From positions 1 through 15,333 of the forward strand of contig CAJWCD010000090.1 in the NCBI GenBank assembly GCA_913020725.1: 15,333 nt of DNA, read 5' to 3'. The position numbers were made by a program, and so were the translations under genes. Below are positions 1-15,333 of the stretch, piece by piece (within the stretch, counting starts at the first letter, position 1; the number at the start of each line of letters is the position of its first letter). This DNA is from an uncultured Pseudomonadota bacterium. GTDB lineage: Bacteria; SAR324; NAC60-12. Under the pieces are notes generated by a model. The model made no database searches. It was not told the origin of the DNA and worked only from the letters and a program-made list of their open reading frames with translations.

Positions 1-44
1 CGCCCGGCGGCGAGTCCAAGAAGGTAAGTCCACTCACCGACTAA
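1..44 (+). CDS. Possible 3' end of an upstream gene (...PGGESKKVSPLTD*), product unknown
   Basis: Open frame from the window edge to TAA at 42-44 with mostly G/C-ending codons; too short to identify. Confidence 0.3.
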   Translation, partial: PGGESKKVSPLTD

Positions 45-145
45 ACGGTTGGAGAACAGACCTCGGAAGCACTGTGCCTCTTGCATCCTCGCTCCAGTTG
101 TGGAATACTCCTGCCGCATACCTCTTTCAAATCCCAAGTGGCCCG

Positions 146-337
146 ATGAGACACATCCACTGCAAGCTCCTGCTTGCGTTTGCCTTCCTGCTGTTCACTG
201 TTCCTGCCTTAGCCGCTGAAACCTGTGAGGTTAAGCCTGTTGAGGTTTCCAATACTGCAACACGCCATACCCTCGTGATTTGCAACACTAAATCTAAAGA
301 GAACCTAATGGGAATCCCTTCTCCTTTGTTTGCCTGA
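146..337 (+). CDS. Small hypothetical exported protein or gene fragment (63 aa)
   Basis: ATG at 146 gives MRHIHCKLLLAFAFLLFTVPALA-AET..., a Sec-type signal peptide (basic n-region, hydrophobic h-region, ALA cleavage site). It stops 9 nt before the cyclase ATG. Confidence 0.45.
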   Translation: MRHIHCKLLLAFAFLLFTVPALAAETCEVKPVEVSNTATRHTLVICNTKSKENLMGIPSPLFA

Positions 338-346
338 AAACATTTC

Positions 347-2173
347 ATGTCTGACTCCACTCCCCGCCGCAAGCTCGCCGCCATCCTCGTCGCCGACGTG
401 GTCGGCTTCAGCAAGAAAATGGGCGAGGACGAGAATCGCACCCTGCGCAACCTCAAGGCCTGCCGGGTGATCACCGACAGTGCGATTGAAAGTAACCACG
501 GGCGAGTTTTTGGCAGCGCGGGGGATTCCGTGATCGCGGAGTTCGCCAGCCCGGTGGACGCGATTGTGGCAGCAGTGGAGTTCCAAAAAAACCTACGGGA
601 CCGCAACGAAGTGGTTCCTTCAGAGGACCAGATGCTGTTCCGTGTGGGCCTCAACCTCGGTGACGTGATCGTGGAGGGCGACAATCTTTTCGGCGACGGG
701 GTGAACGTGGCGGCGCGGCTGGAACCGCTGGCGGAGGCGGGGAGCATCCTTGTCTCCGGGAAGTTCCACGAGGAGGTGCGCCGCAAGCTCGACCTAGGCT
801 TCGTGAGCAAGGGGGCGCAGGAGATGAAGAACATCGAGGAGCCGGTCCCGACCTTCAAGGTGCTGCTGGGGCACGAGGGGGAGCAGGAGGCGACCCCGGC
901 GTCCGCCGCCGCCCCTTCGCCTTCAGTCTCCGCCCCGGAACAGACTCCCGCCGCCGAGGCCAAGGTTCCCGCCATCGCGGTGCTTCCCTTCACGAACATG
1001 GGGGGCGACCCGGAGCAGGAGTACTTCGCGGACGGCATCACCGAGGACATCATCACCAACCTCTCGCTCTGGCGCATCTTCCCGGTGATCTCCAGAAACT
1101 CCAGCTTTGCGTTCCGGGGGCAGGGGCAGAACCTCAAGCAGGTCGCCAGTGAACTTGGCGCACGCTACATCGTGGAGGGCAGTGTGCGGAAAGGCGGAAA
1201 CCGCGTGCGCATCACGGCGCAGCTCATTGACGCGGATGAGGACCATCACCTCTGGTCGGAGAAGTGGGACCGCACGCTGGAGGACATCTTCGAGGTGCAG
1301 GACGAGGTTTCCGAGGCGATTGCGGCGCGTGTGGCTCCGGCCATTGCTGGAAAGGAGCAAAGCCGCATCAAGCGTAACCGACCCGACAATCTCAGCGCGT
1401 GGGAGAAGTACCAGCAGGGCTTGCGGTGTCTCCACGAGCGGCAACGCACGGATTATGAGGATTCCGGGTTGACAGAGGCCAAGTTGCATCTGGAAGCCGC
1501 AATTGCCGCAGATGATTCCTTGGCAGACGCTCATGCTCATCTGGCCCTGTGTGGTGTGGTGGAACTGGCCCAACGCCTGGCAAAGGACCGGGCGCAAACC
1601 ATGAGTCTCATGTTCGACCATGCCCGAAAAGCAATATCACTGGATGCCGAAAACACTACGGCCCTCAGCGTGCTTTCGGCTTACTACCTGTTCAACGGGG
1701 AAATACAGAACTGCTATGACTACGCGCAAAGGGCAGTGAAAAGCAACCCCAGCCACATTATGGGATACCAACGCCTGGGCATGGCTTTGAATAGAATGGA
1801 TCGCTTCGAGCAGGCCGAACCTGTCTTCCAAAAAACCCTCAAACTCAGTCCCGTTGACCCAGAGATTTGGGTTATTCATGTGGGATGCTTTCAGGCCTTC
1901 ATGGGACAGGCTCAGTACCAGAACGCCTTGGAAGCCTGCGACCGGGCGATTGCCTCCAACCCTAGAATGGGCAATCTTCACGGCTTTCGGGCGGCGGCCC
2001 TTGGGCATCTGGAAAGATTTGATGAGGCCCAAAAGGAGCTCGCGATCTATCTGGAAGCCCGTCCGAATCTGAAGACTCGCGAGGATTTCCGCAAACTCTT
2101 CTTCCGAACTTGGGTACTGACCGACATTCTTATCGAGGGGCTGATTAAGGCTGGCTGGGAACCTGAAGCATAA
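347..2173 (+). CDS. Class III adenylate/guanylate cyclase domain protein with TolB-like domain and C-terminal TPRs
   Basis: Cyclase motifs AILVADVVGFS, GDSVIAEF, FRVGLNLGDV and GDGVNVAARLE; Ala/Pro linker; TolB-like IAVLPFTNMGGDPEQEYFADGITEDII...YIVEGSVRKGGNRVRITAQLID; helical TPR-like repeats in the C-terminal half. Confidence 0.93.
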   Translation: MSDSTPRRKLAAILVADVVGFSKKMGEDENRTLRNLKACRVITDSAIESNHGRVFGSAGDSVIAEFASPVDAIVAAVEFQKNLRDRNEVVPSEDQMLFRVGLNLGDVIVEGDNLFGDGVNVAARLEPLAEAGSILVSGKFHEEVRRKLDLGFVSKGAQEMKNIEEPVPTFKVLLGHEGEQEATPASAAAPSPSVSAPEQTPAAEAKVPAIAVLPFTNMGGDPEQEYFADGITEDIITNLSLWRIFPVISRNSSFAFRGQGQNLKQVASELGARYIVEGSVRKGGNRVRITAQLIDADEDHHLWSEKWDRTLEDIFEVQDEVSEAIAARVAPAIAGKEQSRIKRNRPDNLSAWEKYQQGLRCLHERQRTDYEDSGLTEAKLHLEAAIAADDSLADAHAHLALCGVVELAQRLAKDRAQTMSLMFDHARKAISLDAENTTALSVLSAYYLFNGEIQNCYDYAQRAVKSNPSHIMGYQRLGMALNRMDRFEQAEPVFQKTLKLSPVDPEIWVIHVGCFQAFMGQAQYQNALEACDRAIASNPRMGNLHGFRAAALGHLERFDEAQKELAIYLEARPNLKTREDFRKLFFRTWVLTDILIEGLIKAGWEPEA

Positions 2174-2269
2174 CAGCCAATGAGTGGAGCAAGGGGGCCC
2201 CAGCCCCCCGGCACCCCCTGAAGCCGAAGCCTATTTGGTGATCCCGCCCCGGGAGAAAACCGCTGGGGA

Positions 2270-2474
2270 TCAAACCTTGGAGCCAGGGTTGACCAGAAGA
2301 CTAATGCGGGGGCTCTTCCCCGGACAGGACTCGTAATCCACCAGCCCTGCCTCCTTGAGCTGCTTGAGCCCCCTGAGCTTTTGGTCCGGCGAAATACCCA
2401 CTTCCCAAGCCTTTCATACGGGGATTTCACTTCCCACTTCGTTGGTGCGTGGCGGCGGCAGTAGCCCCACGCAC
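2270..2474 (-). pseudogene. Remnant of a small winged-helix DNA-binding protein gene (frameshifted, 5' truncated)
   Basis: Minus strand reads ...YERLGKW, then a frameshift near 2396-2399, then ISPDQKLRGLKQLKEAGLVDYESCPGKSPRISLLVNPGSKV* (stop 2270-2272). The K-x-R-x-L-x-x-L-x-E-A-G-L-V...G-K-S-P pattern is a wHTH recognition helix plus wing. Confidence 0.55.
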
Positions 2475-2478
2475 GGGG

Positions 2479-2544
2479 TTCCGTGGCACATCGCTCTCAA
2501 CCTTGATGGAGGGATTGGGGCTGTCGCATCCGATTGATGCCTGA
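2479..2544 (+). pseudogene. C-terminal remnant of the small gene that usually precedes this type of HNH gene
   Basis: Reads FRGTSLSTLMEGLGLSHPIDA*, with its TGA (2542-2544) overlapping the HNH start (ATGCCTGA). It resembles the 'RGTSLxxLMxxLG' tail I recall for small proteins upstream of such HNH genes. No convincing 5' part is present. Confidence 0.5.
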
Positions 2545-2964
2545 GTCCCGCATCTCCCCGGAAGTCCTGCAAAAAGTCGCAGATCAAGCCAAAGGGTGCT
2601 GCGAGTACTGCCGCAGTCAGGCACGTTTTGCCATGCAGGCGTTTTCGGTGGAACACATCCTCCCGCGTAGCCGGGGAGGGAATCCCACCTTGGACAATTT
2701 GGCGCTGGCGTGTCAAGGTTGCAACAATCACAAGTACACCAAAACGGACAGCAGGGCTCCTGTCGGTCGCCAAACCGTCCATCTCTTCCACCCCAGACAC
2801 CACCAGTGGTCGCAGCACTTCGTCTGGAATTCAGACTACAGGCTGATTCTTGGCCTGACTCCAACCGGAAGAGCCACGGTTGAAGTCTTGCGAATCGGGA
2901 GGGCTTGGTCAATTTGCGACGCCTGCTCTACACAATGGGGGAGCATCCTCCGGCCTTGTCTTAA
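2537..2964 (+). pseudogene. HNH endonuclease (McrA-like, Zn-binding), frameshifted near 2892
   Basis: CEYC...VEHILPRSRGG...NLALACQGCNNHK, LFHPR..QWSQHF.W, GLTPTGRATVEVL. The family-typical tail NREGLVNLRRLLYTMGEHPP continues in the -1 frame from 2893 to TAA 2962-2964, 7 nt before the pepN stop. Confidence 0.85.
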
Positions 2965-2971
2965 ATCACGA

Positions 2972-5683
2972 TCACCCCAGCGTCTTGCTGACCACCTCCA
3001 AAACATCCTTGGAGAGCCGGGGGGACTTCCGGATGCGTTCGAGTTCAGCGACCATGAGGGCTTGCCGCGTGTTGTCGTACTTCTTCCAGCGGTTGAAAGC
3101 GCCAACCAGCCGTGCCGCCACTTGTGGATTGAGCGCATCGAGGGCTAGCACCTGCTCGGCCAAAAACGCATATCCTGCTCCAGAAGCCTCGTGGAAGTGG
3201 ATCGGGTTTGAGCGCACAAACGCTCCGATCAGGGAGCGCGCCTTGTTCGGATTGGTGAGGTCGAAAGCCGGATGCTGAAGCAGCAACTTCACCCGCGCCA
3301 GCGTGTTTGGCAGGCTGGAGATGGCTTGCAAGCCAAACCACTTGGTGATGACCAGCGCATCATCCTGCCAGCGTTGATAGAACGCATCTAGCGCGGTTTC
3401 CCGCTGCGGACAAGCGAGGTTCACCAAGGTGCCGAGCGCACCCATCGTGTCGGTCATGTGCTTTGCCGACTGGAAATGCTGGAAAACGAAGGCACTTGTT
3501 TCCGGAGTTTCCAAGGCTCCCAAGTAGCGTAGGGCGCGGTTGTGCAAGGCACGCAGTCCGGCGTGATCGGCTCGGAACTGGTAGGGGCCGTCCACACGAC
3601 AGGCGCGGTACGCCTCGCGCAGTTCGGGTTCCAGCGTTTGCGCGATTTGCCGAATCAGCGAATTGCGGACCTCGTGAATGCCCTCCACGTCCACCACCGG
3701 CATTTCCTCGCCCAACGTCTTTTCATCCGGAAAGGTGATCGCCAGCGCAATCAGGGCTGGGTCGGATGATTCCACTTGTAGCAGCAGTGAGCGGACAGCT
3801 CCGTGCAGTTCGGGGGAAAGCTCCGGAGCCGTGCCTGCACGCCAGTCTGGAATTTGAGAAAGCACGGCGCGGGACATGAGTTGTTGTCCGGCACTCCAAC
3901 GGTTGAAGAGGTCCGGATCATGGGCCATCAGGTGTGCGAGATCGGTAGCGGAGTAGTCGCAGTACAAACGCACAGGCGCGGAAAATTCACGCAACAACGA
4001 GGGCACAGGCGGTTGTGCGATTCCAGTGAAGGTGAAGGTTTCGCTGGCCTTGCGCAGTTCCAAAACCTGTTCAGAAGTGTTCGTCTCATCGGTTCCCGCA
4101 AGTCGTAGCAGCAGCGGCTGGCCTTCGGAATCAAGCAGTCCCACGCGGATGGGTAGGTGATACGGTTGTTTCTGCACCGGAGCTTGCTCAGCGGTGCAAT
4201 TTCCGGAGCTTCCCGCCTGCTGCGTTTTTCCAAACCCACGCTGCCCCGGCGTGTCTGCGACCGCTTGCCGCATCGTCAATGTGTAGGTTTGCGCCTCTGC
4301 GTCATGCGTTCCGGAAACATGCAGTTCCGGAGTGCCCGCTTGCGAGTACCAATTGCGGAATTGCGTCAAATCGATCCCGCTGGAGTCTGACATTGCCGCT
4401 ACAAAATCATCGCAGGTGACGGCTTGTCCGTCATGCCGCTGGAAGTAGAGGTCCATGCCCTTGCGGAAATTGGCCTCGCCAAGCAGGGTGTGCATCATGC
4501 GGATCACCTCCGCGCCCTTTTCGTAAACCGTGGCAGTGTAGAAGTTGTTGATCGTGAGGAAGGCATCCGGACGCACCGGATGGGCCAGCGGTCCGGCGTC
4601 TTCCGGAAATTGCGCGAGCCGCAAAATTCGCACGTCGTCAATGCGCTTGAGCGGACGCGAGTTGCGATCGGCGCTGAATTCCTGATCGCGGAAAACCGTC
4701 AAGCCCTCCTTGAGGCTGAGTTGGAACCAGTCGCGGCAGGTGACGCGGTTGCCCGTCCAGTTGTGGAAGTATTCGTGCGCGATCACGCCTTGGATGACAG
4801 CGTGGTCGTCATCGGTCGCGCTTTCCGGATCGGCCAGCACGAGTTCCGTGTTGAAGAGATTGAGTCCCTTGTTTTCCATCGCTCCGGCATTGAAATCATT
4901 GACCGCGACGATCATGTAGGTGTCGAGGTCGTATTCTAACCCGAAGCGTTCTTCGTCCCAGCGCATCGCCTGCTTGAGGCTTGCCATCGCGTGATGCAGG
5001 CGGCTGACGTTTTCCGGTTCGGAGTAGAGGCGCAGGGTGATGTTGCGTCCGGAAGCGGTGGTGAACGCATCCTCCAGCACTCCAAGATTTCCTGCGACCA
5101 GCGCGAAGAGGTAGCTTGGTTTGGGAAAAGGGTCCTGCCATTGCGTCCAATGCCGTCCGTTGTCGGAGGTTCCGGAAGCAACGCAGTTGCCGTTGGAAAG
5201 CAGCACCGGGAATTTAGTCTGATCGGCCTCCAGCGTGACCGTGTAGCGGGCCATCACGTCCGGGCGGTCGAGGAACCATGTGATCTTGCGGAAGCCCTCT
5301 GCTTCGCACTGCGTGCAGAACATGCCGCTGGACTGGTACAACCCTTCCAGCGAGGTGTTGGCTTCCGGATGGATGCGCACCCGCGTTTTCAGTGTGAACG
5401 AGTCCGGAACCTCCGGAAGGGAAAGTTGTTCCGTGCTGAGTTCGTACTGCGCCGCAGCAAGTGGCACTCCGTCAAGTTCCACGGCAAGGGTTTCCAACTC
5501 CCGGCCTGCCAGCAGCAGTGGACTTGCTGAATCCTCGGCTGCTGGGTTGCGGCGGAAGCTGGTGGTGGTTTCAACAAGCGTGTGATCGGTGTGGAGCCGG
5601 AAGTGCAATTGAACCTGATCAATCCAGAAATCCGGAACACGGTAATCCTTGCGGAAGGTGAGGGTCTGGGTGTCGGTGCGCAT
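2972..5683 (-). CDS. pepN: Aminopeptidase N (M1 zinc metallopeptidase), 903 aa
   Basis: GAMENKGLN, HEYFHNWTGNRVTCRDWFQLSLKEG (HExxH-18-E), TQCEAEGFR, NNFYTATVYEKGAEVIRM and C-terminal NPQVAARL. Start moved to ATG 5683 (MRTDTQTLTFRKDY), which matches typical PepN N-termini. Confidence 0.97.
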   Translation of the reverse strand: MRTDTQTLTFRKDYRVPDFWIDQVQLHFRLHTDHTLVETTTSFRRNPAAEDSASPLLLAGRELETLAVELDGVPLAAAQYELSTEQLSLPEVPDSFTLKTRVRIHPEANTSLEGLYQSSGMFCTQCEAEGFRKITWFLDRPDVMARYTVTLEADQTKFPVLLSNGNCVASGTSDNGRHWTQWQDPFPKPSYLFALVAGNLGVLEDAFTTASGRNITLRLYSEPENVSRLHHAMASLKQAMRWDEERFGLEYDLDTYMIVAVNDFNAGAMENKGLNLFNTELVLADPESATDDDHAVIQGVIAHEYFHNWTGNRVTCRDWFQLSLKEGLTVFRDQEFSADRNSRPLKRIDDVRILRLAQFPEDAGPLAHPVRPDAFLTINNFYTATVYEKGAEVIRMMHTLLGEANFRKGMDLYFQRHDGQAVTCDDFVAAMSDSSGIDLTQFRNWYSQAGTPELHVSGTHDAEAQTYTLTMRQAVADTPGQRGFGKTQQAGSSGNCTAEQAPVQKQPYHLPIRVGLLDSEGQPLLLRLAGTDETNTSEQVLELRKASETFTFTGIAQPPVPSLLREFSAPVRLYCDYSATDLAHLMAHDPDLFNRWSAGQQLMSRAVLSQIPDWRAGTAPELSPELHGAVRSLLLQVESSDPALIALAITFPDEKTLGEEMPVVDVEGIHEVRNSLIRQIAQTLEPELREAYRACRVDGPYQFRADHAGLRALHNRALRYLGALETPETSAFVFQHFQSAKHMTDTMGALGTLVNLACPQRETALDAFYQRWQDDALVITKWFGLQAISSLPNTLARVKLLLQHPAFDLTNPNKARSLIGAFVRSNPIHFHEASGAGYAFLAEQVLALDALNPQVAARLVGAFNRWKKYDNTRQALMVAELERIRKSPRLSKDVLEVVSKTLG
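4173..4198. repeat. Palindromic stem-loop inside pepN (TGCACCG-GAG-CTTG-CTC-AG-CGGTGCA)
   Basis: 7-bp outer stem 4173-4179/4192-4198 and inner GAG/CTC stem with a CTTG loop. CCGGAGCTT is directly repeated at 4177-4185 and 4203-4211. Confidence 0.6.
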
Positions 5684-5779
5684 GGTTCGTGTTGAGTTTG
5701 AGCGGAATTGTGGTTGAGATGATGGGAGCAACCCAAAGTCTGTCAGGGTACTGGAAAAATCATCAGAGTGGAATTGAGA

Positions 5780-6952
5780 ATGTTGAACCAAGCCTTTGCT
5801 GGAACCGAGCAGTTTGCAGAAATCCGGGATGCGGTGCGTGGGTTGTGCGCGAAGTTTCCGGGGGCATACTGGCGCCAACTGGATCGCGAGCGTACTTATC
5901 CCGAAGAGTTTGTGCAGGCGCTCACGGATTCAGGGTTTCTGGCCGTGCTGATCCCAGAAGAATTCGGGGGCAGCGGTTTGGGCATCCAAGAAGCTGCTGC
6001 TATTCTTGAAGAGGTGCAGCGTGCCGCATGCAACAGCGCGGCGTGTCACGCGCAAATGTACATCATGGGCACACTGTTGCGGCACGGCTCCCCGGAGCAA
6101 AAATCCAAGTGGCTCCCGCAAATCGCATCCGGGACGTTGCGTTTGCAGGCCTTTGGCGTCACCGAACCCACCAGCGGAACGGACACCACCAACCTCCGGA
6201 CTTTCGCTAAGCGTGACGGGGACCGCTACCTTGTCAACGGCCAGAAGCTCTGGACCTCGCGGGTGGAGCATTCGGACCTCATGCTGCTGCTGGCCCGCAC
6301 GACTCCAAAGGAGGAGGTGACGAAACGCACAGCAGGCTTGTCGGTGCTGCTGGTGGACCTGCGTGAAGCCATAGGCAACGGGATCACAATCCAGCCCATC
6401 CGCACGATGATGAACCACGCGACCGCCGAGGTCTTTTTCGAGAACTTGGAGGTTCCGGCAGCAAACCTGATTGGGGAGGAGGGCAAGGGTTTCCGCTACA
6501 TTCTCGACGGCATGAACGCCGAGCGCATTTTGATCGCTGCCGAATGCGTGGGGGATGCTCGTTGGTTTCTCGAAAAATCCGTTGATTACGCCTCCCAGCG
6601 TGTGGTGTTCGACCGCCCGATCGGCCAAAATCAGGGGGTGCAGTTCCCGATTGCTCGCGCTTTTGCAGAGACCGAAGCTGCCGCGCTCATGGTGCGGGAA
6701 GCCGCCCAGCGTTTCGACTCCGGACAGCCGTGTGGCAAGGAGGCGAATCTGGCGAAACTGCTCGCTGCTGATGCCTCATGGAAAGCAGCAGAATCCTGTC
6801 TGCAAACGCACGGCGGTTTCGGGTTTGCGGAGGAATTCGACATCGAACGCAAATTCCGGGAAACACGGCTTTACCAAGTCGCTCCGATTTCCACCAACCT
6901 CATCCTCAGCTACCTCGCCGAGCATGTGCTGGGGTTGCCGCGCTCGTATTGA
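5780..6952 (+). CDS. Acyl-CoA dehydrogenase family protein
   Basis: IPEEFGGSGLG, GVTEPTSGTD, NGQKLWTS, LIGEEGKGF, GMNAERILIA, RVVFDRPIGQNQGVQF, QTHGGFGFAEEFDIERKFRE. YQVAPIS replaces the usual YEGT, so the catalytic Glu is probably the helix-G one (NAER). ATG 5780 preferred over GTG 5768. Confidence 0.95.
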   Translation: MLNQAFAGTEQFAEIRDAVRGLCAKFPGAYWRQLDRERTYPEEFVQALTDSGFLAVLIPEEFGGSGLGIQEAAAILEEVQRAACNSAACHAQMYIMGTLLRHGSPEQKSKWLPQIASGTLRLQAFGVTEPTSGTDTTNLRTFAKRDGDRYLVNGQKLWTSRVEHSDLMLLLARTTPKEEVTKRTAGLSVLLVDLREAIGNGITIQPIRTMMNHATAEVFFENLEVPAANLIGEEGKGFRYILDGMNAERILIAAECVGDARWFLEKSVDYASQRVVFDRPIGQNQGVQFPIARAFAETEAAALMVREAAQRFDSGQPCGKEANLAKLLAADASWKAAESCLQTHGGFGFAEEFDIERKFRETRLYQVAPISTNLILSYLAEHVLGLPRSY

Positions 6953-6987
6953 CACAAATCACGAAAAAACACCACAGCACCACCTCC

Positions 6988-7854
6988 ATGAATAGCATCG
7001 CAACTTCCTCAGAACTTGACCTCGCGCACCTTCAGCAGTGGATTGGCAACACGGAAACTGCAGAGGATTGGGTCTCGCCCACTGCGGTGGAGGGGTTCCA
7101 GCACACCTTGGATTACGACGAAACGGAGCTGCTTCACGCCCCTCCCGGATTTCACTGGACGCTGGGGATTGCCAAGCCGAAAATCTCTGAAGTGGGCCGG
7201 GACGGACACGCTGCGCTCGGAGGGTTTTTGCCGCCGATGTCCGGACTCAACCGCATGTGGGCGGGCAGCGTCCTTGCCTTTAAGCAACCGCTGGCGGTGG
7301 GGCAAGCTGTGGAACGGAACTCCACGGTCAGCAACGTGGAGCTTAAATCTGGACGTTCCGGGCCTCTCGTTTTTGTCACAGTCCAACACCGCTACGATCA
7401 AGCCGGGGCAACGTGTTTTGAGGAAGAGCAAAAGCTGGTGTTCCGCACACCTCCGGACCCCGGCAAGCCTGTCCGCGAACCGGACCCGGCTCCCACGAAT
7501 CCGGAAGTGCAACGCGAAATCACCCCCAATCCGGTGATGCTTTTCCGTTACTCCGCGCTCACCTTCAACGGCCATCGCATTCATTATGATGTGGACTACT
7601 GTCGCGACGTGGAGGGCTATCCCGGACTGGTGGTGCATGGGCCGCTGCAGGCGACGTTGTTGATGGACTTGGCGGTGAGGATGAAGCCGAACGCCCGCTT
7701 CCGGAGGTTCAAGTTCCGGGCACTGAATCCGGTGTTTTGCACCGGGCCGTTTTTGGTGTGCGGTCGTGAGGCCGACCGTCACTTGCAACTCTGGGTAGCG
7801 CATCCGCAGGGCACCTTGGCGATGCAAGGCACTCTTGACTACGAGGACAAATGA
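6988..7854 (+). CDS. Double-hotdog MaoC-like (R)-specific hydratase (itaconyl-CoA / mesaconyl-C4-CoA hydratase, HTD2-like family)
   Basis: GRDGH...GGFLPP, RMWAG, KSGRSGPLVFVTV and LFRYSALTFNGHRIHYD...EGYPGLVVHGPLQA. ATG 6988 avoids overlap with the ACAD gene; ATGA overlap with the SDR. Confidence 0.9.
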   Translation: MNSIATSSELDLAHLQQWIGNTETAEDWVSPTAVEGFQHTLDYDETELLHAPPGFHWTLGIAKPKISEVGRDGHAALGGFLPPMSGLNRMWAGSVLAFKQPLAVGQAVERNSTVSNVELKSGRSGPLVFVTVQHRYDQAGATCFEEEQKLVFRTPPDPGKPVREPDPAPTNPEVQREITPNPVMLFRYSALTFNGHRIHYDVDYCRDVEGYPGLVVHGPLQATLLMDLAVRMKPNARFRRFKFRALNPVFCTGPFLVCGREADRHLQLWVAHPQGTLAMQGTLDYEDK

Positions 7855-8609
7855 AAAAGACCGCACTGATCACAGGCGCAGGCACCGGCATTGGCCGCGC
7901 CCTGAGTGAATTCCTGATCAAAGCCGGGCTTCAAGTGATTGCGGTGGGGCGTCGTCCGCAGCCGCTGGAGTCGCTGCGTGCCAGCCATCCCGATGCCGTT
8001 GTTGCGGTTTCCGCAGACGTGGGCACGGAAGCAGGACGCCTTGCGATTGCCGAGGCCGTTTCTGGAGCATCCCTGAACTTGCTGGTCCACAACGCGGCGG
8101 TGCTGGAACCCGCCGGGCCGCTGGCCGAAATGTCTTTGGAAGCGTGGCGCGAGCATCAGGCGATCAATCTGGAAGGTCCGCTTTTTCTGACCCAAGCATT
8201 GCTCCCACGGCTCGAGTCCGGCTCCCGGATCCTGCACATTTCATCGGGGGCGGCGCACACTGCGATTCAGGGCTGGGCGGCGTACTGCATGTCCAAGGCC
8301 GCGCTGCACATGGGCTACCAGTGCTGGCGCAACGAGTTGCAGGCGCGGGGCGTTCTGGTGGGGAGTGTGCGTCCGGGCGTGGTGGACACCCCGATGCAGG
8401 AGGCCATCCGGGATTTTGATGAAACCGCCTTCCCCCTTGTGGAAAAATTCCGGGCCTTCAAGGCGGATGGGGAACTGGAACCTCCGGAACGAGTTGCCTG
8501 CTTTCTGGGGTGGTTGCTGCTGAAGGCACCAGAAGCCACCTTCACGGCACAAGAACTGGACATCCGGGACGAAACTTTGTGGTCAAACTGGGAAGACTTT
8601 CAACCCTAG
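7851..8609 (+). CDS. Short-chain dehydrogenase/reductase (benzil reductase YueD / sepiapterin reductase-like, likely NADPH)
   Basis: TGAGTGIG, basic GRR after strand beta2, HNAA, ISSGAA, YCMSK (YxxxK), PGVVDTPMQEAIR. Confidence 0.92.
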   Translation: MKKTALITGAGTGIGRALSEFLIKAGLQVIAVGRRPQPLESLRASHPDAVVAVSADVGTEAGRLAIAEAVSGASLNLLVHNAAVLEPAGPLAEMSLEAWREHQAINLEGPLFLTQALLPRLESGSRILHISSGAAHTAIQGWAAYCMSKAALHMGYQCWRNELQARGVLVGSVRPGVVDTPMQEAIRDFDETAFPLVEKFRAFKADGELEPPERVACFLGWLLLKAPEATFTAQELDIRDETLWSNWEDFQP

Positions 8610-8818
8610 ACGGTGTGGCCCATGCTCGCTTCCGGATCGGCTTGCTCTAGTGCGTCAGCAATACGATCCACCCAGACTTGGGCCGCTTCCGGGTTCGGTT
8701 GTGACTTGCGCAGGGCTTCAAGGTAGGCCCACACCGTATCCGCTCCTGCTGTGAGTTGCAGGTTCCGGGCGTGGGAGAGGTGCTCCAGCCAGTTGGGCGG
8801 GAGCGGAGCCTTCGTCAC
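8606..8818 (-). CDS. Hypothetical 70-aa helical protein
   Basis: GTGA start/stop overlap with the CDGSH gene (8815-8818); fills the gap exactly to a 4-nt convergent overlap with the SDR stop; amphipathic helical composition. Confidence 0.65.
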   Translation of the reverse strand: MTKAPLPPNWLEHLSHARNLQLTAGADTVWAYLEALRKSQPNPEAAQVWVDRIADALEQADPEASMGHTV

Positions 8819-8997
8819 AGGGTCGTGCAGTTGCGGTGGGCACCATCACAGAAGGGCTTCTTTTCGGAAAGCCCGCAGCGGCAGAGCGCAATCGTTCCCT
8901 CCTTCTTCTCTTCGGTCCCATCCTCATGCACTAGGGTTGCGCCGCCCTTGATCAGCAGCGGCCCCTTGGCGTTCACTTGAATTTTCAGATCTGACAT
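8815..8997 (-). CDS. CDGSH-type [2Fe-2S] protein (60 aa)
   Basis: ALCRCGLSEKKPFCDGAH (CDGSH motif, 3Cys-1His), N-terminal GPL strand motif, strong SD AAGGAG (complement of 9003-9008). Confidence 0.92.
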   Translation of the reverse strand: MSDLKIQVNAKGPLLIKGGATLVHEDGTEEKKEGTIALCRCGLSEKKPFCDGAHRNCTTL

Positions 8998-9036
8998 TTG
9001 GTCTCCTTGTTTGAGTGGGGTTCAGTCAATCCCTAC

Positions 9037-9064
9037 ATTTTAATCGCGGACAGGCAGGTTGCAA
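9037..9064 (-). promoter_or_regulatory. Putative sigma70 promoter for the CDGSH operon
   Basis: TTGCAA (9064-9059), 16 nt spacer, TAAAAT (9042-9037), about 40 nt upstream of the CDGSH ATG. Confidence 0.55.
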
Positions 9065-9140
9065 GCCGTGCAGAACCCGAAAAAACGCCGCAGAAGTCGC
9101 ATTGAAACACATTGATTCCAACAAATCGACATTCAGGGGG

Positions 9141-9172
9141 TTGACCATTTTTGATAAACTTGAGATTATAGT
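9141..9172 (+). promoter_or_regulatory. Putative sigma70 promoter for the sigma factor gene
   Basis: TTGACC (9141-9146), 17 nt, GATTAT (9164-9169) preceded by TG at 9161-9162; overlapping TATAGT at 9167-9172; AT-rich context. Confidence 0.4.
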
Positions 9173-9243
9173 AGGTACCGTAACAGCTTTGCAAGCATGA
9201 TTTGGAGATGTCAACGAACCCAAATTGCTGGGGTCGTAACGAT

Positions 9244-10884
<1,641 letters not shown>

Positions 10885-10895
10885 GCTTCCTGAAC

Positions 10896-10930
10896 TTCGG
10901 GGTTGCTGGCATGTGTTAGCCAACCCCGGA
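10896..10930 (+). other. Long intergenic stem-loop between the sigma gene and moxR
   Basis: TTCGGGGTTG (10896-10905) pairs with CAACCCCGGA (10921-10930), extended by an inner G-U-containing stem. No U tail. Confidence 0.6.
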
Positions 10931-10934
10931 CCCC

Positions 10935-11930
10935 ATGTCTGCGTCCCTCATGCAGTTGCCTCTTCACGACACCTTCACTCAGCTTCAGCACAACCTTCAG
11001 GCCAGCATCCTAGGACAGCCCCAGCTTGTGGAACGGCTGTTGATCGCGCTGTTGTCCGACGGCCATTTGCTGGTGGAAGGGTTGCCCGGACTTGCGAAAA
11101 CTCGGGCTGTGAAGGCCCTTGGCGACCGCGTTGAAGGCGAATTTCACCGCATTCAATTCACTCCGGATTTGCTGCCTTCCGATGTCACTGGAACCGATGT
11201 CTTTCGTCCAGAGGATCACAGTTTCGTGTTTCAGCCGGGGCCGATTTTCCACAATCTGGTGCTGGTGGATGAGATCAACCGTGCTCCGGCCAAGGTCCAG
11301 TCCGCTCTGCTGGAAGCCATGGCCGAGCGGCAAGTGACGATTGGACGCCGGACTTATCCGCTGCCTGCTTTGTTTTTGGTGATGGCAACCCAGAATCCTA
11401 TCGAACAGGAAGGCACCTACCCGCTTCCGGAAGCGCAGTTGGATCGTTTTTTAATGAAAGTGACGGTCGGCTATCCCCCGCGTGAAGACGAACAGCGCAT
11501 TCTGAGGCTTGCCCGACAGGAAGCACGGGACGGCAGCGAGCGCACCGCACAGGTTTCAACGCATGAGTGCATTCCAGCCCAAGACGTGCTTGAGGCGCGG
11601 CAGGAGATCTTGAACCAGCACCTTGCAGAACCACTGGAGGGCTACATCGTGGAATTGGTGCAGGCGACCCGCGACCCGGAACGCTATGATCCAGAGTTGG
11701 CGGGCTGGCTCAACTGGGGGGCGAGTCCACGGGCGACCTTGGCACTGGACCGTTGTGCACGGGTGCGGGCGTGGTTGCAGGGACGGGATTTTGTCACGCC
11801 AGAGGACATTCAGGACATTGCCCCGGATGTGCTGCGTCACCGCTTGTTGCTCAGTTATGAAGCTGAATCCTCCGGAATCACCGTGGAAACGGCCATCCAA
11901 CGGCTGCTCTCGCTGGTTGCTGTACCTTAA
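10935..11930 (+). CDS. moxR: MoxR-family AAA+ ATPase (MoxR-proper type)
   Basis: GHLLVEGLPGLAKT (Walker A), RIQFTPDLLPSD, LVDEINRAPAKVQSALLEAMAERQVT (Walker B), ATQNPIEQEGTYPLPEAQLDRF, GASPRA, VLRHRL. Confidence 0.96.
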   Translation: MSASLMQLPLHDTFTQLQHNLQASILGQPQLVERLLIALLSDGHLLVEGLPGLAKTRAVKALGDRVEGEFHRIQFTPDLLPSDVTGTDVFRPEDHSFVFQPGPIFHNLVLVDEINRAPAKVQSALLEAMAERQVTIGRRTYPLPALFLVMATQNPIEQEGTYPLPEAQLDRFLMKVTVGYPPREDEQRILRLARQEARDGSERTAQVSTHECIPAQDVLEARQEILNQHLAEPLEGYIVELVQATRDPERYDPELAGWLNWGASPRATLALDRCARVRAWLQGRDFVTPEDIQDIAPDVLRHRLLLSYEAESSGITVETAIQRLLSLVAVP

Positions 11931-11949
11931 CTCCATCCAGCACTGAACC

Positions 11950-12894
11950 ATGTCTAGCAAGCCGCTTTCGTTTGAGATTCCAGAAATCGTCAATCCCTCC
12001 GGGAGGGAGGGCAGCCCGCACCGTAGGCCGATGAACTACACCACCGACGAGACACGAGAGAGCACGGTCAAGGAAACCGGAGGGCAACCCCGTATTGACT
12101 TTGAGGGCACGAGCAACCCGTACATCAATTATGAAAGCATTGACCTGCTACTCAGCCTCCAGCATCCCCGCAGCGAGGGTTACGACGAAATGTGCTTCAT
12201 CCTTTCCGGACAGTGCAAGGAACTGCTCTTCAAGATGGTGCATTTCGAGCTGCACAACGCCCGGCTCTGCATCATCCGGGATGACTTGCCCCGTGCCTTT
12301 GTGATTCTGGACCGCACAAAGAAAATCTTTCGCTACATCGGGGACATCTGGGATGTGCTTTCCACCATCACGGCGCATGGTTTCAGCGAGTTCCGGAACC
12401 ATCTCGGCTCGGCGTCAGGGCAGCTTTCCTTCATGTACCGACACGTTGAGTTCATCTTGGGTAACAAGTCCAAGGCGATGGAACAGGCACACCGCAACGT
12501 CCCGCATGTTTATCCCGCCATCAAAAAAGCGTTCGAGGAACCCAGCCTTTACGACGAGGTCATCCGGATGCTGGACCGAAAAGGCTATGCCATCGCTGAG
12601 GAATTGCTGGAGCGGGACTGGACCCTCCCGCACCAATCCCACCCGTCCGTCCAAAAAGCATGGCTGGAGATTTACGGCAACCCCGTTCCGGAGAACGAGC
12701 TTTATCGCTTCGGCGAGGATTTGACCGAAATCGCCGACCTCTTCTCGCAGTACCGCTGGCGACATTTTGTTTCGGTGCAGAGGATTCTTGGACTCAAACC
12801 GGGAACCGGAGGGTCCACCGGAGTCGGTTGGCTCAAGGGCATCACGGAGCACCGCTTCTTCCCAGAACTCTGGGATATCCGTACCCAGTTGTAA
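11950..12894 (+). CDS. kynA: Tryptophan 2,3-dioxygenase family heme protein, divergent (alternative start 12031)
   Basis: Y..Y...D.LLSLQHPRS, DEMCFI...Q..EL, WDVLSTIT, FR..LGSASG, PSLYDE, RWRH..SVQRILGLKPGTGGSTG..WL, FFPELWDIRTQL. The family call is firm; the substrate is not. Confidence 0.88.
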   Translation: MSSKPLSFEIPEIVNPSGREGSPHRRPMNYTTDETRESTVKETGGQPRIDFEGTSNPYINYESIDLLLSLQHPRSEGYDEMCFILSGQCKELLFKMVHFELHNARLCIIRDDLPRAFVILDRTKKIFRYIGDIWDVLSTITAHGFSEFRNHLGSASGQLSFMYRHVEFILGNKSKAMEQAHRNVPHVYPAIKKAFEEPSLYDEVIRMLDRKGYAIAEELLERDWTLPHQSHPSVQKAWLEIYGNPVPENELYRFGEDLTEIADLFSQYRWRHFVSVQRILGLKPGTGGSTGVGWLKGITEHRFFPELWDIRTQL

Positions 12895-13000
12895 CAAGAT
12901 CGCAAGGGGCATCCGCCCATTGGGTTCCGAGCCCAGCGCCCTGCTTCTCAAAAGGAACTCTTGAGGTGGTCGTCATCAATGTCTTGGCCTGAGCAAAAAA

Positions 13001-13357
13001 ATGGGTTGGCTTTCGTTTCACATTGTCATCTTGGGCCTGCTGGTCTACCTTGCTGGCTAGGGACACAACTGTAACGAGATAGAAGCCATGTCGCGCATTT
13101 GGGGAAGCCTCAACGATTACCAGCACCTTACCGAACCTCTGCTAGGAGTCGAGGAGTCCGAATCCTCACCTTTGGAGGTCCTCAAGATCCCTGCATTCCG
13201 CTTTTGGGGCTGTGTTTTGCTGGCCCTAGTTCCTTCAGCCTTCCTTTTGCTCCCCAACCCCTTCCAGTGATCCGAGTCTGAATCTGTCATGGAATTCCAG
13301 CAAATTTCCTCCCTTCGAGAGCAAGCGAACGATCACCTCGCAAATCCTGACGATTGA
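13001..13357 (+). pseudogene. Possible decayed membrane-protein gene with two in-frame stops
   Basis: One frame reads MGWLSFHIVILGLLVYLAG*(TAG 13058)GHNCNEIEAMSRIWGS...FRFWGCVLLALVPSAFLLLPNPFQ*(TGA 13268)SESESVMEF...NPDD*. It has two TM-like segments, and the last TGA overlaps the lactonase ATG (TGATG). Confidence 0.35.
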
Positions 13358-14262
13358 TGGCCGCTGGACCTGAGCAACTCAATTACGAAATCGTTCACGA
13401 GGTTCCAAACCAATTGGGCGAATGCCCAGTTTGGGACGAACGCGCCCAACGGCTTTACTGGGTGGACATCAAGGGTCGCCAAATCCTGCGGCTCGATCCT
13501 TCCTCCGGAACCGTGGAAACCAGAAATGTTCCCGGCAAGCCCGGAATGCTCGCCTTGCGCACGGACGGAGGCTTGGTGATCGCACAGGATCGCGCCCTCG
13601 CCAAGTTCGATTTCGATGCCGGAACTTTGCAACCACTCGTCCAGATTGAACCGGAGGCGAGCACCAAAGTGCGGCTCAACGATTCCAAAGTGGATCGCCA
13701 GCAGCGGCTCTGGATTTCCTCGATGGCCGATCCAACGATTCCCGGAGAGCAGCACGGAAGCCTTTTCCGTTGGCAAGAGGGCCGATCCCCGGAGTTCGTG
13801 TTGGGTCCGGTGGGAGTGGGGAACGGACTCGCCTTTGCACCGGACGACGAAACCTTCTACTTCGCGGACACCCACGCCCGCACCGTCTGGCAATGCCGTC
13901 TGAATCCGGAGGATGGAGCCTTGCTCGATCGGCAGGTTTTCGCGCAATACCTCGATGAACCGGGGCGTCCGGACGGGGCGTGTGTAGACGCTGAGGGCTA
14001 CTACTGGCTGGCGGTGGTCGACGGTTGGCGGCTGGATCGCTTTGCTCCGGATGGCCGGTGGGATCGCTCGCTTGCCGTGCCCTTCCAGAAGCCAAGCTGT
14101 CCGGGTTTTGGCGGAGCAAAGCTGGATCAGCTTTATGTCACCAGCATTGCCGCCGGAAGTTCCACTCCACTGGAACCCAACCAACCCCATGCAGGAAAGC
14201 TGGTTGTCTTTGAACCTGGCGTTTGTGGACTCGAGGAACCGCGCCTTTCATTGAGGGCATAA
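13357..14262 (+). CDS. SMP-30/gluconolactonase/LRE family sugar-acid lactonase
   Basis: LGECPVWD...LYWVDI, RLNDSKVD..RLW, GNGLAFAPD...YFADT, GRPDGACVDAEGYYW, FGG..LDQLYVTS (E/N/N/D metal ligands of the six-bladed propeller). Confidence 0.93.
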   Translation: MAAGPEQLNYEIVHEVPNQLGECPVWDERAQRLYWVDIKGRQILRLDPSSGTVETRNVPGKPGMLALRTDGGLVIAQDRALAKFDFDAGTLQPLVQIEPEASTKVRLNDSKVDRQQRLWISSMADPTIPGEQHGSLFRWQEGRSPEFVLGPVGVGNGLAFAPDDETFYFADTHARTVWQCRLNPEDGALLDRQVFAQYLDEPGRPDGACVDAEGYYWLAVVDGWRLDRFAPDGRWDRSLAVPFQKPSCPGFGGAKLDQLYVTSIAAGSSTPLEPNQPHAGKLVVFEPGVCGLEEPRLSLRA

Positions 14263-14488
14263 ATCAGGCTCTTGCACTCATCCAATCAGTTTTCTGTTGG
14301 AACTGAATCCCGACCAGACTGTGGGGAAACAGGGCAAGAAGACTCTGTTGCCACGCCTATTAGGGCACCTCTCCATCACAAGATTTCACATGAGCCTGAT
14401 AATTCAACTTGCTAGATGTCAGTTGTCCGGATTCAATATCTTGCAGAGGTCAATCAATCTGATCTATGACGGGTTGTTGACATAACCA

Positions 14489-14518
14489 AGACCAGCGGTT
14501 CGGGCTGCTGGTTTCTTT
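14489..14518 (+). terminator. Terminator-like hairpin with U-rich tail in the leader of the SBP gene
   Basis: AGACCAGCGGT-TCGG-GCTGCTGGTTT followed by CTTT, about 20 nt before the SD. Confidence 0.4.
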
Positions 14519-14535
14519 GAATGAACTGAAGAACA

Positions 14536-14542
14536 TAAGGAG
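14536..14542 (+). promoter_or_regulatory. Shine-Dalgarno site
   Basis: TAAGGAG 6 nt upstream of ATG 14549. Confidence 0.8.
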
Positions 14543-14548
14543 AAGCTC

Positions 14549-15333
14549 ATGAAAATATTCATGAATGTAGTGGTCTCAGGCATTGTGCTGAGCTTTATGA
14601 TGGCAAGTCTTGCCTCGGCGGAAACGCTTCGTGTTGGCACGGAGTGTACCTATCACCCATTCAACTACCGAGACTCCAGTGGACAACTACAGGGCTACGA
14701 TGTTGATGTTGCCAAGGAGGTTGCTGTGCGCATTGGTGCAAAGCTCAACTTTGTCTGTCAAAAATGGGACGGCATGATCCCCGCTCTGTTGGCGAACAAG
14801 TTTGATCTCATTGTTGCGTCCATGTCCATCACGAACAAACGTAAGAAGAAGATTGACTTCTCCTTCCCATATCGCGTGTCCATCGGACAGTTCATCGGTG
14901 CCAAGTCCAAAAACCTCAAATTATTCAATGCGGATGGCTCTGTAAACCGCAATGGGTTCAATGGGGTGCGAATCGGCATCGAACGGGCAACGACTTACGA
15001 TAACTGGATCCAAGCCAAGGTGCCCAACGCAGACATCGCCTATTATGATTCCAACGAAGCAATGTATCTGGACCTCAAGGCCGGTCGGGTAGATGCAATC
15101 ATGACAAACCCGATGAAGGCATTTCTCCGCTTTTTGAGCAAGCCCGACGGGGCAGGTTATGAAGTGGTGGGCCCGCAGCTTGCCGAGGAGGAATATTTTG
15201 GCATTGGTGTAGGTATTGGGTTGCGCAAGGGCAATGATGCCTTGCTGTCACGACTTGATGTTGCCCTCAAATCCATGGCCAAGGACGGTTCCCTTGAGCG
15301 GTTTGCGAAGAAAATCTTCCCCTTTACAATCCA
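14549..15333 (+). CDS. Polar amino-acid ABC transporter substrate-binding protein, family 3 (HisJ/ArgT/opine-binding type); runs off the window end
   Basis: Absent from the ORF track; translated by hand: signal peptide MKIFMNVVVSGIVLSFMMASLASA, then LRVGTECTYHPFNY, GYDVDVA, WDGMIPALLANKFDLIVASMSITNKRKKKIDFS, LDLKAGRVDA, FGIGVGIGLRK. Strong SD. Confidence 0.95.
   Translation, partial: MKIFMNVVVSGIVLSFMMASLASAETLRVGTECTYHPFNYRDSSGQLQGYDVDVAKEVAVRIGAKLNFVCQKWDGMIPALLANKFDLIVASMSITNKRKKKIDFSFPYRVSIGQFIGAKSKNLKLFNADGSVNRNGFNGVRIGIERATTYDNWIQAKVPNADIAYYDSNEAMYLDLKAGRVDAIMTNPMKAFLRFLSKPDGAGYEVVGPQLAEEEYFGIGVGIGLRKGNDALLSRLDVALKSMAKDGSLERFAKKIFPFTI

Follow-up and report, generated by a model that had tools for sequence, protein, structure and literature searches.

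The palindrome TCCGGA, hyper-abundant in an uncultured bacterium and its relatives, follows a helical-scale spacing rule that differs among genera

Introduction

Hyper-abundant palindromes have been a puzzle of cyanobacterial genomes for about 30 years. Here we describe a case outside the cyanobacteria: the hexamer TCCGGA in a 15,333-nt stretch of DNA (contig CAJWCD010000090.1 of assembly GCA_913020725.1, from an uncultured bacterium assigned to the SAR324 lineage; "the window" below means this whole stretch), in the draft genome to which the stretch belongs, and in 30 relatives. The highly iterated palindrome HIP1 (GCGATCGC) and the alternate HIPs of cyanobacteria are, like TCCGGA, short palindromes hyper-abundant across a lineage (PMC4390886, PMC5861425). 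Like TCCGGA, they occur in all coding frames and in non-coding DNA, their identity and strength vary among related genomes, and they have no assigned function, a role in chromosome structure having been proposed, as far as the accessible parts of the two papers go. Elhai 2015 (PMC4390886) gives GGCGCC, rCCGGy and GCsGC as alternate HIPs with matching methyltransferases, and the accessible part of that paper makes no mention of TCCGGA; Xu et al. 2018 (PMC5861425) report that HIP1 is conserved and has a periodicity of 18-94 kb, and the word "helical" is absent from the part of their text that is accessible. Full-text literature searches, from whose scope subscription journals were largely excluded, gave no report of TCCGGA hyper-abundance or of its spacing among the matches listed.

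Some better understood systems also bear comparison. The DNA uptake sequences (uptake signal sequences, USS, and DNA uptake sequences, DUS) of Pasteurellaceae and Neisseriaceae are non-palindromic words of 9-12 nt, present at about 1-2 per kb and maintained by drive at the population level; we know of no helical-phase rule between their copies. In E. coli, very-short-patch repair acting together with Dcm biases repair at a methylated site and so shifts oligonucleotide frequencies without any function of the word. The protein SeqA binds paired GATC sites on one face of the helix, and needs them hemimethylated.

Results

TCCGGA is the commonest hexamer of the genome that contains the window. That genome is a draft (G000) of 3,446,541 bases with 56.7% GC and 93% completeness, split into 204 contigs with a mean length of 17 kb, of which C90 is the window; TCCGGA occurs in it 7675 times, once per 449 bp. 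Its observed/expected ratio is 7.35 when only base composition is modeled and falls to 6.51 and 3.37 with Markov models of first and second order, and all three place it at rank 1 of 4096. An earlier note, made from the letters of the window alone, had proposed a HIP1-like iterated palindrome and had named the genome-wide hexamer ranking as a check; first place under Markov orders 0, 1 and 2 is in line with the proposal. The other NCCGGN palindromes are depleted (ACCGGT 0.32, CCCGGG 0.18, GCCGGC 0.21), and nearly all other GC-rich 6-bp palindromes are strongly so (0.05-0.4x; GGGCCC 0.05x, CGCGCG 0.09x, CCGCGG 0.09x, CACGTG 0.10x).

Within the window, the earlier hand count of about 39 sites, against roughly 5 expected, proves accurate: exactly 39 are found, including all 17 positions given as examples. 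They span 3028-14431 (the first at 3028, the last at 14426-14431); 17 lie within the gene pepN, and 1-3027, 8637-10390 and 14432-15333 are empty, all as claimed. In 200 dinucleotide-preserving shuffles of the window the mean is 5.47 sites (sd 2.27) and the highest count is 13, so none attains 39. All but one of the sites (38 of 39) lie in called genes, 9 of them read as TCC GGA, 6 as xTC CGG Axx and 23 as xxT CCG GAx; the site at 14426 is in an uncalled stretch.

To separate coding effects from a property of the DNA, we compared genic and uncalled sequence, using a simple codon-log-odds gene caller made for this analysis (3083 genes, 87% coding). The 7126 genic sites are distributed over all three frames: 2144 TCC GGA, 1156 xTC CGG Axx and 3826 xxT CCG GAx (54%). 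Shuffling of synonymous codons within genes, which keeps both the protein and the codon usage, yields 2106 +/- 39 sites, so that the observed number is 3.4-fold higher; the ratios for the three frames are 3.6, 1.9 and 4.2, and the z value is the largest among all hexamers. Shuffling of codon order yields 1220 sites. Trimmed uncalled stretches (266 kb) hold 298 sites where 61 are expected, a 4.85-fold excess and again rank 1 by observed/expected, and a much stricter selection of non-coding DNA, 16 kb free of open frames of 50 codons, holds 8 where 2.3 are expected (Poisson P 0.0026), a result that is weak alone. Since the enrichment survives synonymous shuffling and is present in non-coding DNA, it is a property of the DNA. 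The codon-preserving shuffle was a check that the earlier note had itself suggested, together with the caveat that Pro-Glu/Asp codon pairs inflate the count; these pairs do describe the commonest frame, xxT CCG GAx, and are not the cause of the enrichment. We also looked for a tendency of sites to lie at amino-acid-divergent positions, as a sign of protein rewriting, and found no consistent one.

As far as abundance goes, TCCGGA behaves as a CCGG core whose flanks are favored each on its own, not as an all-or-none hexamer. Given CCGG, a T precedes with frequency 0.515, an A follows with frequency 0.515, and both occur with frequency 0.264, which equals the product; before CCG with a next base other than G, T is found in 26,766 of 113,847 cases (0.235). 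Under the maximal-order Markov model the observed/expected ratio of TCCGGA is 0.997 (rank 2084): its count equals the prediction from the two overlapping pentamers. The whole palindrome is thus not over-represented relative to its own sub-words, and the same comparison in the relative G013 gives a ratio of 1.09 (0.277 vs 0.255). Beyond the hexamer there is an AT bias at positions -1 and +6 only; TTCCGGAA reaches 20.6x without carrying information beyond the hexamer, and no wider motif, A-tract or AT periodicity was found around the sites. The claim that the unit is the hexamer therefore stands for the spacing rule described next, which needs the full hexamer, and fails for abundance, where the flanks are independent.

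To analyze spacing, we permuted the labels "realized" and "not realized" among the positions at which the protein permits a site (Ser-Gly; x-Pro-Asp/Glu with x able to end in T; Phe/Ile/Leu/Val-Arg followed by a residue with a codon able to start with A), a null that fixes the protein and controls for amino-acid periodicity, including that of alpha-helices. Pair distances of TCCGGA show a period of 10.7 bp with maxima near half-turns, at a power of 48.7 where none of 300 permutations exceeds 8.4; at d = 20-23 there are 6 pairs where about 60 are expected. A stricter null, with permutation within gene and frame, gives a period of 10.6 bp (half-power range 10.2-11.2) and a power of 27.9 vs 7.1. 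The effect is mostly avoidance of whole helical turns within about 75 bp: relative to the stricter null, pairs at 15-44 bp number 41 vs 142 expected in phase (0.29) and 184 vs 183 in anti-phase (1.00), those at 45-74 bp 105 vs 150.6 (0.70) and 270 vs 231.9 (1.16), and those at 75-109 bp 273 vs 273.9 (1.00) and 280 vs 235.9 (1.19). The amplitude of the periodicity is 0.46 for hexamer with hexamer, 0.18 for hexamer with half-site (same phase), 0.05 for half-site with half-site and 0.06 for hexamer with bare CCGG; since it is high for hexamer pairs only, the spacing effect needs the full hexamer. The window itself has six pairs spaced by at most 60 bp, between 4310 and 7505 (spacings 16, 36, 39, 48, 9 and 48 bp), and five of the six sit in the half-turn, or anti-phase, half of the 10.7-bp period.

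The sign of this rule differs among genera. In the relatives, pairs were counted by fixed-gap patterns at d 20-23, 25-28, 30-33 and 35-38, the first and third ranges being in phase and the second and fourth anti-phase, and were compared with an in-phase share of 0.483 expected from the coding null of G000. In genus g1, to which the window belongs, the four counts are 8, 69, 11 and 87 for G000 (in-phase to anti-phase 19:156), 2, 23, 2 and 30 for G001 (4:53) and 3, 42, 7 and 65 for G002 (10:107). Of two g2 genomes, G014 has 21, 68, 31 and 81 pairs (52:149) and, like g1, is strongly anti-phase (P between 1e-10 and 4e-26 for these four genomes), and G003 has 12, 36, 70 and 62 (82:98, P 0.5), with no phase alternation. 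Genus g5 is in phase: G006 has 20, 13, 48 and 16 pairs (68:29) and G016 has 18, 9, 24 and 13 (42:22), which pool to 110:51 (P 3e-7). The g12 genome G013 (28, 16, 41 and 26; 69:42) is in phase more weakly (P 0.004), and its full spectrum over 15-110 bp in 796 kb contains no significant period, the power at 10.7 bp being 0.34. When G000 is downsampled to the pair number of G013, its power averages 5.8 (5th percentile 2.2); the value of G013 lies far below this, so that its phase preference must be weak or short-ranged. The listed pairs of G006 and G003 are all different sequences and are thus not due to a repeat; those of G006 cluster at 32-33 bp, about three turns. Neither a universal property of DNA nor a mutational drive would flip its preference between genera.

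One relative, G017, was dropped from the phase comparison because its anti-phase excess stems from a dispersed repeat: a 32-bp element, bounded by two TCCGGA sites 26 bp apart, is present in about 30 or more places (e.g. on its contigs C27, C28, C29 and C30). A further relative, G007, has several copies of a 29-bp hairpin-like repeat that is also bounded by TCCGGA.

Hyper-abundance of the word is confined to one family among the genomes compared. We scored the trait in relatives as an at least 3-fold excess of TTCCGGAA over its reversed control. By this measure 12 of the 18 relatives within the family carry it and none of the 12 from the sister family does (maximum 2.4); within the family, genera g3, g6, g9 and g10 do not have it. 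The earlier suggestion of a lineage-specific word thus agrees with the distribution. In G013 (genus g12; 796 kb), which has 42% GC, TCCGGA is the top hexamer by observed/expected at 7.9x, with near-independent flanks; being equally enriched at that GC content, this genome indicates that the trait is independent of base composition. The second most over-represented hexamer of G013 is CTGCAG (6.4x over loci L110-L149, vs 0.34x in G000), and GCAGCA is raised 4.6x; the excess of CTGCAG may stem from the use of CTG and CAG codons, or the word may be another iterated palindrome specific to its lineage.

To follow individual sites, we made codon alignments of 96 orthologue pairs with G002 and 68 with G001 and counted only positions with identical amino-acid context. 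At conserved four-fold sites, third-position identity is 0.79 with G002 and 0.62 with G001. Sites are shared with G002 in 149 of 198 cases (0.75), vs 0.57-0.71 for other codings of the same contexts, frame 0 alone being significant (p 0.006), and with G001 in 57 of 143 cases (0.40), vs 0.27-0.53, which is not significant. Sites found in one genome only number 49 in G000 vs 30 in G002, and 86 in G000 vs 24 in G001. These alignments suggest that single sites are gained and lost about as fast as synonymous positions change, and that the abundance would be a steady state, or dynamic equilibrium, rather than conservation of sites.

TCCGGA is the specificity of BspEI/AccIII, of the type II restriction-modification class, and a link to a DNA methyltransferase or to repair had been put forward in the earlier note. 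The genomes do not support it: no matching methylase was found that tracks the trait. In the 93%-complete draft G000 we found no C5-methylase (PF00145), Vsr, MutH or Eco57I-type methylase (PF07669); a fragment of a type I HsdM is present at a contig end. C5-methylases were found in 12 of the 31 genomes and in none of the three g1 genomes; within the family, 6 of the 13 trait-bearing genomes have one, as do 3 of the 6 that lack the trait. The endonuclease families of NgoMIV and of Bse634I/Cfr10I gave no match in G000, and they are silent in all 14 control genomes as well, so that the power of this search is undemonstrated.

One protein was considered as an orphan methyltransferase for TCCGGA and rejected, as its presence does not follow the trait. 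It has 579 residues and is encoded at G000:C49:18038-19774 (locus L081:514-2253, minus strand), between bacA and the gene of an EamA-type transporter; only a short region (residues about 167-255) has the SAM-binding motifs of a beta-class methylase, with a weak PF01555/PF02086-like match of 30.4 bits vs a 26.7-bit cut-off. The protein is present in 26 of the 30 relatives, including the trait-less f1 genomes G004, G007, G011 and G015 and, as a weak match, G010, and was not found in G012 or G018, both of which have the trait.

The earlier note had also read the uneven distribution of sites within the window as marking core genes and not accessory ends. Across the genome, 7126 of 21,641 permitted positions (32.9%) carry TCCGGA (by context 32%, 47.5% and 17%), and occupancy per gene is not overdispersed: in the 764 genes with at least 10 permitted positions the sd of z is 1.02 with 0 below -3, and occupancy is uncorrelated with GC3 or codon score. 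The uneven distribution in the window is therefore best explained by amino-acid content and chance, not by gene origin. The aminopeptidase N gene pepN (2972-5683, minus strand; gene names are from Pfam matches) has 35 permitted positions and 11.5 sites expected at genome-wide occupancy; it has 17 (P(17 or more) = 0.039), and their high number is mostly due to the many Pro-Glu/Asp, Ser-Gly and [FILV]-Arg contexts. Conversely, an adenylate/guanylate-cyclase gene with TPR repeats (347-2173, plus strand) uses 0 of 12 permitted positions where 3.5 sites are expected (P 0.015), and has typical GC and codon usage, with 90% identity to a G001 contig end and 75% to a gene of G013. The primary sigma factor gene rpoD (9319-10884, plus strand) has 9 permitted positions, 2.0 sites expected and 2 present. 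A solute-binding-protein gene that runs off the right end (14561-15331) has 0 sites, 1.1 being expected; with only 5 permitted positions, its lack of sites has no statistical weight. The other genes of the window encode an acyl-CoA dehydrogenase, a dehydratase-like protein, a short-chain dehydrogenase, a MoxR ATPase, tryptophan 2,3-dioxygenase and a gluconolactonase-like protein. Relatives of the PepN protein share no more than about 47-57% identity with it and come from several phyla, and the matches of RpoD are taxonomically mixed, so that these two proteins do not confirm the SAR324 assignment.

Neither synteny nor gap statistics support the core-versus-accessory claim within the window. 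Positions 2970-12895 and 13250-14267 are syntenic with genomes of the same genus (G001 at 81%, G002 at 87-91%). The site-free middle (8637-10390), which comprises two small ORFs, an intergenic region and the 5' half of rpoD, is syntenic and 90% identical in G002, and is thus core DNA rather than accessory. The site-free left end (1-3027) has a typical GC of 0.587 and ranks no higher than 24th in length among the TCCGGA-free gaps of the genome, in which 9.9 gaps of at least 3 kb are expected by chance. The site-free right end (14432-15333) has a GC of about 0.51, and 14268-15333 has no DNA-level match in G001, G002, G003 or G013; from about 14268 onward the window is plausibly variable DNA.

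Genome-wide, TCCGGA does hold weakly as a marker of native versus foreign DNA, in the form of a graded drop in low-GC DNA where enrichment is still raised. Occupancy is 0.18-0.24 in genes below 54% GC vs 0.33-0.36 in typical genes, and enrichment, after correction for composition, falls from 7.7-8.4x in typical windows to 3.7-5.2x in those with less than 50% GC. Gaps longer than 4 kb number 9 vs 1.1 expected, most of them low in GC. Empty 2-kb windows number 47 (17.7 expected by chance over all windows), 22 of them with GC below 50% and 25 with typical GC, the left end of our window included. The longest TCCGGA-free stretches of the genome include C12:1-4449, C12:7509-15572, C4:55987-61192, C72:1-3147 and C100:9915-13216, with 38-48% GC; four of the five are mostly uncalled by the native-codon caller, C12:7509-15572 being 91% called. 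These long low-GC stretches may be foreign islands or mis-binned contig ends.

Further features of the window were noted. A short dispersed repeat flanks the cyclase-TPR gene (1-210 and 2192-2261), and pieces of it (70-210 bp, 77-91% identity) lie on at least 7 other contigs of G000 (C190, C81, C75, C180, C186, C201 and C80), often near contig ends; the two pieces adjoin on C180 and C190, and G001 and G002 have similar ones on several contigs. The 5' part of the same gene matches ends or near-ends of G001 contigs at 83-90% (C28, C257, C168, C198 and C201, also C126 and C223), and the gene appears to belong to a multi-copy family that breaks assemblies in G001 and has a single assembled copy here. 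Toward the right, matches of the window to G002:C19 skip from 10881-12042 to 12752-12843 (gap 12043-12751); from this alignment, the tryptophan 2,3-dioxygenase gene, which both this genome and G001 have, seems to be largely missing from G002.

Discussion

We have shown above that TCCGGA is enriched at the level of the DNA, that its two half-sites multiply, that its copies turn over nearly neutrally, and that full hexamers follow a pair rule whose sign changes; together these properties are hard to reconcile with a codon, a repair-only or a mechanics-only reading. We tentatively favor the reading that TCCGGA stays abundant, and its close copies avoid sharing a helix face, because a putative dimeric DNA-binding (architectural) protein reads it, and we would put the probability of this at roughly 0.4. 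Such a dimer would recognize the CCGG core jointly and each flank separately; that the flanks act independently would follow if the energies of the half-sites add up. Occupancy would be held at about a third by weak selection across the genome or by a drive toward a certain density of sites. Where bound sites share a helix face, they would interact by bending, bridging or looping, which would be harmful in g1 and favored in g5. A bolder version, about which we are more doubtful, is that TCCGGA serves as the chromosome-wide address of an abundant architectural protein that reads its copies pairwise by helix geometry, under a rule that flipped between genera.

Several observations weigh against the dimeric reader. 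No candidate protein turned up, although proteome-wide phyletic profiling was not made, and no clusters of sites or promoter arrangements point to the gene of a reader, the maximum being 4 sites in any 150 bp. G013, with 7.9x enrichment and no period, and G003 show enrichment without clear phasing, so that the two phenomena may have different causes. Conservation of sites is at most marginally above that of same-context controls, which fits neutral drive as well as weak selection. The gene calls rest on the simple caller of this analysis, the pair counts of relatives are judged by the coding null of G000, and related genomes are not independent of one another.

How else could one hexamer become so abundant? 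In methylation-linked biased repair of the type discussed by Elhai, a methyltransferase for TCCGGA or CCGG, together with a bias of methyl-directed repair, turns near-sites into sites that have no function. Much of what we observed would fit: the word has the palindromic form usual for type II restriction-modification sites, the trait varies among genera of one family, the depletion of GC-rich 6-bp palindromes resembles that of restriction-exposed genomes, turnover is near-neutral as drive predicts, G013 has CTGCAG as a second strongly enriched palindrome (6.4x), and in cyanobacteria alternate HIPs co-occur with matching methyltransferases (PMC4390886). We nevertheless regard this explanation as unlikely, because the draft shows none of the C5-type, Vsr, MutH or Eco57I-type enzymes, and the three genomes of the genus no C5-methylase; because neither the methylase-like protein of contig C49 nor the C5-methylases of the family track the trait; and because all-or-none recognition predicts a synergy of the flanks that is not seen (ratio 0.997). 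Nor can biased repair account for a spacing rule that has a 10.6-bp period and changes sign, for which a separate cause would be needed. The alternative that intrinsic DNA mechanics alone are at work, with TCCGGA a directional bend or flexible element whose density and phase are set by selected curvature or stiffness and not by a specific reader, draws on the spacing data: the 10.6-bp period (half-power 10.2-11.2) agrees with the helical repeat, the effect fades over about 100 bp as torsional or bending coherence would, and only full hexamers show it. It strikes us as improbable, since the same physics holds in all genera, yet the phase of g5 is opposite and that of G013 and G003 weak or absent; there is no A-tract or AT periodicity near the sites, and no evident reason why mechanics should raise one hexamer among 4096 some 7-fold.

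Spread through the population by preferential uptake or recombination of TCCGGA-bearing DNA, as with DNA uptake sequences, is less probable again. The density of about 2 sites per kb in genic and intergenic DNA, the independent contributions of positions, the near-neutral turnover and the scarcity of sites in atypical low-GC DNA, as expected of recent arrivals, are what such a drive would produce, but a 6-bp palindrome offers little specificity beside uptake sequences of 9-12 nt, and helical-phase rules between copies are, to our knowledge, a feature of no uptake system. Least credible of all, to the point of being negligible, is a by-product of codon and dipeptide usage in Pro-Glu/Asp, Ser-Gly and Arg contexts with no cause at the DNA level. 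It would account for the 54% of genic sites in the xxT CCG GAx frame, and codon-order shuffling leaves fewer sites than synonymous shuffling (1220 vs 2106), so that the proteins themselves do supply many suitable contexts. Yet the enrichment survives synonymous shuffling overall and in each frame, non-coding DNA is enriched too, a relative with 42% GC shows the same 7.9x, and the spacing rule persists with the protein sequence fixed; by the synonymous and codon-order shuffles and the non-coding enrichment, such an artefact is ruled out.

It is instructive to return to the described systems. Of the properties by which a HIP is recognized, TCCGGA has over-representation, rank as top outlier and independence of codons, and lacks over-representation relative to its sub-words. 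Unlike HIP1 it is a 6-mer and not an 8-mer, lies outside the cyanobacteria, and has the count that its two pentamers predict; unlike the cyanobacterial HIPs it has no matching methyltransferase that we could find in the 93%-complete draft, specificity being unreadable from sequence. Its sites are not clearly above controls in conservation, whereas HIP1 is reported as conserved, and its periodicity, at 10.6 bp, is that of helical turns and differs in sign by genus, whereas that of HIP1 is 18-94 kb in the same study (PMC5861425). Uptake sequences share with TCCGGA that an over-represented short word, genic and intergenic, is kept without conservation of single copies. The Dcm/Vsr bias needs a C5-methylase and Vsr, neither of which was found in G000, and gives no spacing rule. 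SeqA resembles the protein proposed here in that it reads pairs of a short palindrome and helical phase matters; SeqA, however, favors the same face, which TCCGGA in g1 avoids, and it does so with methylation that is not known for TCCGGA.

TCCGGA thus takes the problem of hyper-abundant palindromes outside the cyanobacteria, and adds a spacing rule, helical in scale and changing in sign, that is not reported in the HIP1 studies. Biases of mutation or repair would not readily produce such a rule, and the rule makes the statement that something binds these sites testable. The results also show that one DNA word can fix about one third of synonymous choices wherever proteins permit, which is relevant to models of codon usage, to binning and to composition-based detection of foreign DNA, although for the last TCCGGA is a weak marker. 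If an architectural protein does read the sites in pairs, they would constitute a sequence-encoded code for chromosome folding, of a kind undescribed for any bacterium.

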